Source: Candidatus Oxydemutatoraceae bacterium (lineage in GTDB: Bacteria > Pseudomonadota > Gammaproteobacteria > Poriferisulfidales > Oxydemutatoraceae). From it: DNA of 64,000 bases. The DNA is taken from NCBI GenBank assembly GCA_965219575.1, contig OZ244779.1, positions 172,769 to 236,768 of the forward strand. The letters run 5' to 3'. Position numbers: made by a program. Shown here piece after piece: positions 57,601 through 60,600 of this stretch. Within the stretch, counting starts at the first letter, position 1. Every line of letters begins with the position of its first letter.

Positions 57601-60600
57601 GGATAGGAATGTGGGACAGATAGCATTGTCGGACGGGACCATGTATTACCTACCCGACTTACAGCGTAAGGAAGCAAGACGCAAGCGTTATCAGCGAATG
57701 GTTGTTAGACGGGTTAAGGGAAGCAACAGGCGTAAGCTAGCGAAGTATAAATTACAGAAAGCGTATCACGCGGAGCGATTTACGAGGGCGAATTGGTGCC
57801 ATAAAACCAGCAAGCTAATAGCGGACAAATACGACATCGTCTATATGGAAGGACTGAATACAGCAGGCATGACGAAGTCGGCGAAGGGGACGATAGACAG
57901 CCCGGGCAAGAATGTGGGAGCGAAGTCAGGTTTGAACAGAGAGATACTAAAGAGTGGCTGGTATAAACTGGAGCAATGCTTAAGCTACAAAGCATATGTA
58001 GGAAAGGTCAATCCAGCATATACAAGTCAAACCTGCAACAAGTGCAGAAGCGTAGATAAAGCGAACCGCAAAACACAAGCGATATTCAAGTGTCGGCACT
58101 GCGGACACGAGGACAATGCAGATGTAAATGCTGCATTAAACATTTTGGCGGTCGGGAATACCGCAACCGGGCGTGGAGATTGCAGCGTTGGCTGGTCTGT
58201 GAAGCGTCAAAAAGATAGGGTAGCAAGGCGGTCTAATAAATCTGTCAAGTTATCTATATAATTCCCAATGAGTGAACGATACTAATTATGATATTATGGA
58301 ACACCAAAAATACTGTCTGACTTGAGGAGATCGATTATGGGTTTTTTAATGCATTTGTTTTATTTTTTAATATGTAGCGCGCTGATAGCGATGATGTGGT
58401 TCGTATTTCTGTTTTTTAATAATCTAATCGACAAAATGCAAAGAGACTTCGTGCAAGGGTTATTGGGCACCGTGAACACGGTTGTATTATTGGCCGTTGT
58501 CGGCCTCGTTGTCTCGTACTTCGCACTGAGCTTTTTCACCGGCTTATTGTTTGTCATGATCGCAACCTTCTTAATCTACTCGGTCAAAAAAGCAATGACC
58601 GGTTTGACGGGTGCCAAAAGTTAGCGTAAAAATAGTTTATACGCGGGATTATCCGACTCGTCTTGATATTGATAACGAGACTCCCGCATCGCTTTTTTGA
58701 AGTGCGCTATTTTATCGGATGGCACCTGCACACCGACCAGTATACGACCATATTCCGAACCGTGACTTGAAAAATGGAATAGGCTGATATTCAGGCCTTG
58801 GGTGGCAAAATACTCCAAAAATTCCAGCAACGCACCCGGTCTTTCCGGAAATTGAAAACGGCATAACTGCTCGTTTTCTCGCTTATCGTGCAGATGCCCG
58901 CCGACCATGTGTCTTATGTGTAGTTTTGCCATTTCGTTATCCGAGAGATCGACGACTTCATAGCCTCTGCGCTGCAGTGAGGCAATGGTCTCGGGCTTGT
59001 CGCGCTTGAGATTCTCGAACTCCAGGCCGACGAATACTCGGGCTTCGACATTATCGGAATAACGATAGTTAAATTCGGTAAGTTTTCGCTTGCCTATAGT
59101 CCGACAAAAATCGACAAAACTGCCCGGCCGTTCCGGTATCGTCACCGACAATAGCGACTCGGTGCCTTCGCCGATCTCGTAACGTTCCACAACATGCTTG
59201 AGGCGGTCAAAATTGATGTTCGCTCCCGAAGCGATAGCGACCAAAGTTTCGTTGAGACATCGGTACTTGGCGATATAGCGTTTTAAGCCGGCTATGGATA
59301 ACGCACCGGCGGGCTCGAGCAAGGTACGATTTTCGTCAAAATTGTCTTTGATCGCAGCACAGATCTGATCGGTGTTAACCAATATAACTTCGTCGACCAA
59401 CGCTTTTGAGACTCTAAAAGTCTCTTTGCCGATGCATCGCACCGCAGTACCGTCGGAGAATAATCCGACTTTATCGAGCGTGACAGCCTTACCTTGCTGC
59501 AGGGCGGTGTATAAGGTTGCCGCATCATCGGGCTCAACTCCGATGATTTTTGTTTGCGGGCGGAATTTCTTCAAATAAAGCGACACTCCGGCGATCAATC
59601 CGCCGCCGCCGACCGGAACAAAAACGGCATCTATGTGTTCTTTGCATTGTCGATGTATCTCCATGCCGATGCTGCCCTGCCCGGCGATTACTTGCGGATC
59701 GTCGTACGGATGTACGAAAGTGTGGCCGTGCTTTGCAGCGAGTTTGACTGCGTATGCATACGCTTCGTCATAAGTATCTCCGTGCCGCACAATATCCGGT
59801 TTGAACAATGCAACCGCCTTGACCTTAATCATCGGCGTAGTCAGTGGCATAACGATAATTGCTTTGACACCCAATTTTTGGATTGCCAACGCAACACCCT
59901 GCGCATGATTACCCGCCGAGGCGGCGACGATACCCGCCTGCTTCTCTTTATCCGATAATTGAGCGATTTTGTTGTATGCGCCTCGCAGTTTGAACGAGAA
60001 AACCGATTGTTGATCTTCTCGCTTCAAAAAAATGCGCTGTTTGAAGCGCTTTGATAAATAGGGAGCAGCTTGCAGTGCCGTAACGGAAGCTACATCGTAG
60101 ACCTTGCAATTTTCAATTGCCTCAATATAGTCTGTAAATATATCGGTCATGTTTGTTCGGAAATTTTTTAATCATCAAATCGAGTATTATGATGGACAAT
60201 AGTATAATCTAACTGCCGATAATATGCAGTTTCTTAAAGAACAATGTCCGTCGATACGCTTAAAAAAACAGTTGCCGAAGCGGCAATAGATTATGTACAA
60301 GTCGGCGATTTGGTCGGTGTGGGTACGGGGTCGACGGTAGATTATTTCATCGCTACATTGGCGCGCATATCCACCCGTATAGAGGGTGCGGTCGCAAGTT
60401 CAAAAAGAACCGCCGACCGGTTGCAGGCATTCAATATTCCGGTGGTTGATTTGAATAACGCCGGCACTTTGCCGCTTTATGTAGACGGTGCGGATCAAGC
60501 CGATCAAAGCCTGCATCTGATTAAGGGCGGCGGCGGTGCGCTCACCCGTGAGAAAATCATCGCCACGGCAAGTTCCCGCTTTATATGTATCGTGGACGAG

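Follow-up and report, generated by a model that had tools for sequence, protein, structure and literature searches.

A candidate TnpB guide-RNA scaffold built partly from the inverted repeat of an IS1595-family element

Where does the guide of a TnpB nuclease begin when its gene lies between the inverted repeats of a DDE transposon? The question is raised by a tnpB gene in contig OZ244779.1, from the genome of a Candidatus Oxydemutatoraceae bacterium (one contig, 2.37 Mb). The stretch of 64,000 nucleotides that we analyzed (positions 172,769 to 236,768 of the contig; hereafter the window) carries on its plus strand an open reading frame (ORF) of 402 amino acids at 57053-58261, identified as tnpB by Pfam and structure matches. 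This gene is the sole cargo of a 1259-bp element that runs from a left terminal inverted repeat (TIR; GGGAATTATATAGATAACTTGACA, 57008-57031, plus strand) to a right one (TGTCAAGTTATCTATATAATTCCC, 58243-58266, plus strand). The right TIR, within which the tnpB stop codon falls, repeats the left one perfectly in inverted orientation over 24 nt, where chance would give 0 matches. The 8-bp sequence AATGAGTG, read as a target-site duplication (TSD) without strand, stands to the left of the element at 57000-57007 and again to its right at 58267-58274. We find that the last 121 bases of the element most likely encode the guide-RNA scaffold (omegaRNA) of TnpB, built partly from the IS1595-type inverted repeat, and that the guide would be read from the adjoining DNA.

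The initial annotation had noticed, at the 3′ end of tnpB, a short hairpin (GCGGT, 58148-58152, with ACCGC, 58160-58164), the motif TGAAGCGTCAA (58200-58210), a further 32 bp (58211-58242) and then the TIR (58243-58266), all of which are present at these positions. It took them for an omegaRNA with three possible guide starts: after 58210, within the TIR after 58248, or after 58266. The scaffold at the 3′ end of tnpB and a junction at or near the right end of the element were borne out by the analysis below; the first two guide starts were not.

The element has no DDE transposase of its own, tnpB being the only long ORF between the TIRs. Sister genomes carry a 1276-bp insertion sequence (IS) that encodes a 306-aa IS1595 transposase and has a 24-nt TIR identical to that of the tnpB element. 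A 1348-bp IS in the same genome as the window, with a 315-aa IS1595-family transposase, agrees with the tnpB element over the outer 12 nt of its TIR and likewise makes 8-bp duplications. Since the tnpB unit has its TIRs, its 8-bp TSDs and its ends in common with elements that encode DDE_Tnp_IS1595, we classify it by sequence as a non-autonomous IS1595-family element. Elements of the IS200/IS605 family, including the IS1341-type elements that carry tnpB only, have neither TIRs nor a TSD, end in subterminal hairpins and depend on a Y1 TnpA acting in cis or in trans. An identity of this kind is ruled out by the perfect 24-nt TIRs, the 8-bp TSDs and the ends in common with IS1595.

RNA structure at the right end of the element

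We built a covariance model, R1, and aligned the 88 distinct relatives with it. The search for the scaffold, one of the checks suggested with the initial annotation, matched exactly 58146-58266 on the plus strand, at 109.7 bits. This stretch of 121 nt is the predicted scaffold, for which structure statistics and retention in miniature elements also argue. One architecture, from the NAALNI codons to the end of the TIR, is found across relatives whose TnpB proteins are 40-100% identical.

The predicted RNA is read from the plus strand throughout. It begins with hairpin H1 (58148-58164), whose stem (58148-58152/58160-58164, 96% paired) closes the loop CGGGAAU (58153-58159). Helix P2 (58170-58208) joins GGCGU (58170-58174) to GCGUC (58204-58208), is 97% paired and encloses hairpin H2, which consists of an outer stem (58177-58180/58195-58198) and an inner stem (58183-58186/58191-58194). 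Hairpin H3 (58218-58255) takes its 3′ arm (58242-58246 and 58249-58255) from the inner half of the right TIR, and is followed by a single-stranded tail, AUAUAAUUCCC (58256-58266).

Counts of paired cells, made on fixed alignment columns, agree with this structure. Among the 88 distinct sequences, 95.9% of cells were paired, against 83.2% after shuffling and 26-51% when the partners were slid; 16 pairs and 215 cells had changed on both sides. A set of 30 sequences gave 93.5% against 78.7% and 32-53%, respectively, with 14 pairs and 103 cells changed on both sides.

Compensatory changes in the 88 relatives were found helix by helix. Two pairs of the H1 stem vary in this way, one between CG (64 sequences) and GC (19), the other among UG (63), GC (11), CG (8) and UA (6), so that the hairpin at 58148-58164 exceeds chance, its stem covarying from G:C to C:G and U:G. 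The first pair of P2 is GC in 72 relatives versus CG in 15, and in H2 all pairs of the inner stem and three of the four outer pairs show compensatory changes. H3 was not aligned by MAFFT, which precluded scoring by column, and was assessed by folding each sequence separately. Nearly all of 37 relatives form one hairpin that ends in the inner TIR, despite differing inner TIR sequences; the mean z was -2.4, with z < -1.5 in 25 of the 37.

The scaffold is also kept where tnpB is gone. Three tnpB-less miniature inverted-repeat transposable elements (MITEs) of 198-226 bp in this genome retain exactly the scaffold of 58146-58266 beside flanks of their own, and R1 matched 8 full scaffolds in the genome as a whole.

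The tail is predicted to fold back. GGGAAU in the H1 loop (58154-58159, plus strand) pairs with AUUCCC at the tip of the TIR (58261-58266, plus strand; scaffold positions -6 to -1), forming a pseudoknot that is 95.8% paired in the 88 sequences. The model behind the 88-sequence alignment did not include this helix. Five of the six pairs in the helix show almost no variation, the TIR tip being a substrate of the transposase as well. The variable pair is AU in 61 sequences, CG in 7, GU in 6, UG in 5 and UA in 1, and is unpaired in 7; in a separate extraction we found the sixth standard type, GC (GGGAGU with ACUCCC). Six loci in other metagenome-assembled genomes (MAGs; L053, L054, L056, L057, L072 and L151) have the TIR tip ...AAGTCCC and the H1 loop GGGACU. 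The clearest compensatory change for the pseudoknot is that of the L053-type lineage.

Several points weigh against this account. The relatives are not independent of one another, so the shuffle statistics overstate significance. A scan of 56800-58600 against Rfam returned matches at chance level only and no matching family, and a promoter and terminator scan found no sigma-70-like promoter for the predicted RNA. Covariation in the pseudoknot rests mainly on one pair, the one unpaired in 7 of 88 sequences. In addition, the six bases with which the left TIR begins are the same as the H1 loop, and a role of the loop at the level of DNA is formally possible.

The last of these points belongs to an alternative in which the hairpins are not RNA at all. 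They would reflect either coding constraint on the C terminus of TnpB or DNA sites for the transposase, the H1 loop serving as a third copy of the TIR tip. That the whole region is coding, with the ORF running into the TIR, fits this alternative, as does the match between loop and left TIR tip. Three observations oppose it. Changes in the pseudoknot alter amino acids, as when GGGAAU (Gly-Asn) becomes GGGACU (Gly-Thr) with the TIR tip changing too; the structure is intact in the MITEs that lack tnpB; and the layout matches that of a solved omegaRNA. We consider this alternative improbable.

The predicted guide junction and the motif at the left flank

If the structure is correct, the TIR is scaffold, and with the final bases of the element engaged in the pseudoknot, the guide would start at 58267. 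The predicted guide, AATGAGTGAACGATACTAAT (58267-58286, plus strand; 16-20 nt), would start with the 8 nt of the right TSD: it reads AATGAGTG and then AACGATAC onward, and the guide predicted for the native scaffold is AATGAGTGAACGATAC. The sequence of 58267-58286 is unique in the genome. From the scaffold end at 58266 and the position of the left-flank motif described below, we put the probability that the TIR is scaffold and that the guide is read from flanking DNA from 58267 at roughly three in four. The third guide start of the initial annotation is thus the one that the scaffold end and the pairing of the TIR in H3 and the pseudoknot favor.

Two other junctions had been proposed. In the first, the scaffold would end with TGAAGCGTCAA at 58210, and a fixed internal guide, AAAGATAGGGTAGCAAGGCG, would target a constant locus. 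The strong conservation of TGAAGCGTCAA and the 32 nt that separate it from the TIR are compatible with such a guide. However, TGAAGCGTCAA includes the 3′ arm of the covarying helix P2 (GCGUC, 58204-58208) together with conserved neighbors, which led us to reject it as a guide boundary, and the pseudoknot requires the TIR tip. The 20-mer at 58211-58230 is itself conserved scaffold, comprising the linker and the 5′ arm of H3; copies and relatives alike preserve it, with no hypervariability. A genome search found it only inside copies of the element, with no outside match at 3 or fewer mismatches. We also looked among the five copies for a hypervariable internal segment and found none, divergence beginning only at the end of the TIR. 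A fixed internal guide is therefore very improbable.

We give equally little credence to the second junction, in which the guide would be the TIR itself from 58249 and TnpB would target the ends of related elements. TCAA does occur again at 58245-58248, and with 2 or fewer mismatches allowed, about 23 genomic sites carry TIR sequences. Against this, base pairing within the scaffold takes up the inner half of the TIR in H3 and its last 6 nt in the pseudoknot, and a guide of this kind would hit every copy, its own ends included. TCAA is absent from relatives with other inner TIRs; we regard its presence in both the motif and the TIR as coincidence.

A guide that starts with the duplication makes a further prediction: the target-adjacent motif (TAM) must adjoin the left duplication on its upstream side in the unoccupied site. 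In the window this position, directly 5′ of the left duplication, is occupied by ATA (56997-56999, plus strand). The left TIRs of relatives were located by their 12-nt tip together with agreement of the TSDs; in some copies the inner TIR sequence differs between the two ends. TA stood at positions -2 and -1 in 16 of 19 independent insertion sites of the subfamily; its frequency in the genome is 0.064 (p 6e-17). At the same 19 sites, A was at -3 in 12, and the duplication itself began with A in 17. The empty alleles of a second copy of the element (copy B) have CTA at the candidate TAM position.

The motif is oriented and depends on the kind of element. At the mirrored position beyond the right duplication, TA was found in two of nine cases, and among IS1595 elements that lack TnpB and have identical or related tips, only three of 19 ends follow it (Fisher p 5e-5). 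Other TnpB subfamilies have G at -1 instead, in 31 of 40 validated sites versus 9 of 40 for the mirrored C. Because the two TIRs are identical, a symmetric transpososome should give no orientation-specific flank motif. A cause related to TnpB is the simplest reading of this asymmetry, and ATA is probably the TAM.

Length counts against this assignment. TAMs of TnpB proteins are typically 4-5 nt, longer than the 2-3 nt of the motif here and the 1 nt of other subfamilies, and the flank motif could also reflect target choice by the transposase. In this alternative the scaffold and junction would be as described above, and ATA (or G) would mark asymmetric target choice by the IS1595 transposase or a host factor. 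The shortness of the motif is in its favor, as are the preference of IS1595 elements for AT-rich targets and the fact that 2 of 10 ends of this genome's transposase-bearing IS also follow TA. It does not account for the orientation, which a transpososome on identical TIRs should not sense, for the lack of the motif at TnpB-less elements with the same TIR and at the mirrored right position, or for the difference between TnpB subfamilies that have the same TIR tip. The motif also stands exactly where a TAM is expected if the guide starts at the duplication. We therefore consider target choice unlikely, with more to be said for it than for the other alternatives, and continue with ATA as the candidate TAM.

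These elements suggest a mechanism of persistence. An IS1595-family DDE transposase acting in trans would move the tnpB element, making 8-bp duplications. TnpB, with the 58146-58266 scaffold and a guide derived from the flank, would then cut unoccupied alleles (ATA followed by AATGAGTGAACG...), and this cleavage would favor repair from, or replacement by, the occupied allele, so that the element persists. The occupied site would be spared. All TIR tips end in CCC, which leaves the occupied right junction without the flank motif, and the guide matches the occupied left junction over 8 nt only, as the initial annotation had noted. What the sequences show is the structure with its covariation, the arrangement of TIRs and TSDs, the partner in trans, the flank motif and the empty alleles; that the RNA is made and used by TnpB, that ATA serves as the TAM and that cleavage of empty alleles occurs and aids persistence are what we infer from them.

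An advantage in retention would accrue only to insertions behind a TAM, which could explain the flank motif. TnpB and its flank-derived guide may thus decide which insertions persist, by cutting empty alleles behind a TAM, or may bias where the element lands, making an RNA-guided retention filter on a bacterial DDE transposon. This reading starts from the finding that nearly all surviving insertions lie in one orientation, directly downstream of a short, subfamily-specific motif that a symmetric DDE transposase could not choose. We hold it tentatively, at somewhat less than even odds. The oriented flank motif is in any case a testable TAM prediction, and it raises the question of how an element that inserts at random comes to adjoin its TAM.

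TnpB, copies of the element and their surroundings

The nuclease looks intact and canonical from its sequence. Its Pfam domains are HTH_OrfB_IS605, OrfB_IS605 and Cas12f1-like_TNB, and ISDra2 TnpB (8BF8/8EXA/8H1J) is matched over the full length with E ~1e-25. The RuvC residues D184, E266 and D354, together with C328, C331, C347 and C350 of the zinc-finger motif CxxC...CxxC, are invariant in the alignment of relatives (A1). TldR-type regulators are nuclease-dead TnpB proteins that have lost the RuvC catalytic residues and use a fixed guide. We ruled out such a regulator on the strength of the intact catalytic residues and because no fixed internal guide was found.

Five intact copies of the tnpB element (85-100% identical) are present in the genome along with a broken one and a number of short derivatives, and every match among them is limited by the TIR ends. 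Two of the intact ones, C (871714-872972) and D (267403-268670), have open ORFs that each lack one cysteine of the first zinc-finger CxxC (CNKR.. and FNQC..); judged by sequence, these TnpB proteins may be impaired despite intact scaffolds. Duplications of 8 bp flank most copies. Copy E (1865961-1867219) and the MITEs at 2197522-2197747 and 396851-397074 are without matching flanking duplications, which may be due to recombination between copies or to decay of the flanks.

Empty alleles were found for copy B. In three sister genomes the site reads ...GCGCGTGCTA, then AAATCATA, then G..., uninterrupted and with a single copy of the duplication (the left flank ends in GCTA), so that the duplication is real and the insertion polymorphic. 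An empty allele of the window's own copy was sought in sister genomes and not found: one has the same insertion, and the others are without the left-flank region. A locus 99% identical to that of the window is present in OZ244052.1 and identifies the genome of the window as a Candidatus Porisulfidus, a sponge-associated gammaproteobacterium.

Other IS1595-type elements lie in the same genome. The 1348-bp IS has three copies (497452-498799, 458819-460166 and 2344320-2345667) with the TIR GGGAATTATATACTTAAATACATA, and two 250-bp MITEs derive from it; these have only the outer 12 nt in common with the TIR of the tnpB element. Within the window, an intact 753-bp IS1595-family IS occupies 53982-54734. 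It encodes a 224-aa transposase on the minus strand (Pfam DDE_Tnp_IS1595) and has a 21-nt TIR of its own, GGTACTTGACTAGTTTAGGGA, and the 8-bp duplication TATTGAAA (53974-53981/54735-54742).

A remnant of another IS1595-type element extends over 54905-56993: the N-terminal part of a transposase is left at 54905-55192, and a degenerate right end, ...AAGTATATAATTCTC, lies at approximately 56968-56993. Enclosed in it are a D12-class adenine methyltransferase (55222-56148) and, overlapping this, an ORF of 264 aa (56145-56939) for which no Pfam match was found; the two are possibly a restriction-modification pair. The tnpB element is inserted 7 bp past the right end of this remnant.

The scaffold is widespread, occurring in 22 of 53 genomes of the order and in up to about 30 copies per genome, and IS1595-borne TnpB elements are abundant in sponge-symbiont Gammaproteobacteria. 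Of 80 related tnpB loci, about 35 have GGGAATTATATA... repeats and 8-bp duplications at their borders. Such TIR-bounded loci come from MAGs of Gammaproteobacteria, Rhodothermales, Paracoccaceae, Caldilineaceae and Thermodesulfobacteriota; loci L049-L052, L055, L060, L067 and L068 have the same layout in MAGs labeled with the last four names. This distribution across phyla suggests transfer between phyla, for which a common habitat would be our guess.

Comparison with known systems

TnpB has been worked out for the IS200/IS605 and IS607 families, in which excision is scarless and the TAM is the insertion site of the transposase. In the ISDra2 omegaRNA the scaffold measures 116 nt, and the stem-1 loop is paired with positions -6 to -2, which immediately precede the guide (PMC10097598). 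Apart from the full-length protein match, the system described here resembles ISDra2 in having a scaffold of similar size (~116-121 nt) that overlaps the 3′ end of tnpB and stops at the right end of the element. In both, the loop of the 5′ stem forms a pseudoknot with the bases before the guide (in the present element H1 occupies -119 to -103 and the pseudoknot strand -6 to -1), flanking DNA supplies the guide (by prediction here) and there is a motif upstream of the left end. Unlike ISDra2, the element has 24-nt TIRs and an 8-bp TSD, and neither subterminal hairpins nor a Y1 TnpA. Its last stem and pseudoknot strand are made of the TIR, the predicted guide begins with duplicated target bases, and the transposase insertion site is distinct from the candidate TAM (ATA or G).

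TnpB proteins linked to DDE transposases and carried between inverted ends, for example in IS630, have already been reported, as have solo tnpB genes whose ends are common to transposase-bearing elements, implying mobilization in trans (Altae-Tran et al., 2023, PNAS, PMC10691335). The loci described in the passages of that paper drawn on here resemble ours in their symmetric inverted ends and in the distance of the tnpB 3′ end from the element end (<250 bp). A term search of its main text gave 0 occurrences of IS1595. Relevant passages of a 2026 review name ISL2, IS630 and IS1031 as DDE partners of TnpB, IS1595 not being among them, call such elements rare in prokaryotes and ask whether DDE-linked elements gain from the nuclease (PMC13565253). 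A text search of the literature for TnpB together with IS1595 returned nothing relevant. The RNA structure, the pairing of pseudoknot and TIR and the oriented flank motif presented here are not described in the passages of PMC10691335 and PMC13565253 on which we draw.

Fanzor1 of eukaryotic DDE transposons, as covered in those passages of the review, offers a parallel: it too is an RNA-guided TnpB homologue in a transposon with TIRs and a TSD, with a guide RNA that runs through the transposon end (PMC13565253). The TAM of Fanzor1 includes the 5′ TSD, its scaffold contains the 3′ TSD, and the terminal pseudoknot has been lost. The element described here, by contrast, retains the pseudoknot; its 8-bp TSD varies and would belong to the guide, and the motif falls outside that duplication.

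With IS1595-family ISs and MITEs, finally, the element has in common TIRs that start with GGGAATTATATA, an 8-bp TSD and short non-autonomous derivatives; it differs from the ISs in its cargo, tnpB and a guide-RNA scaffold taking the place of the DDE transposase. Elements of this kind are known in outline, and the details given here are new. With a scaffold of 121 nt and a guide junction defined, these compact nucleases can be tested directly. An IS1595 TIR built into the guide-RNA scaffold as its last stem and pseudoknot, with the target duplication starting the guide, would be a concrete solution for a DDE-linked TnpB.

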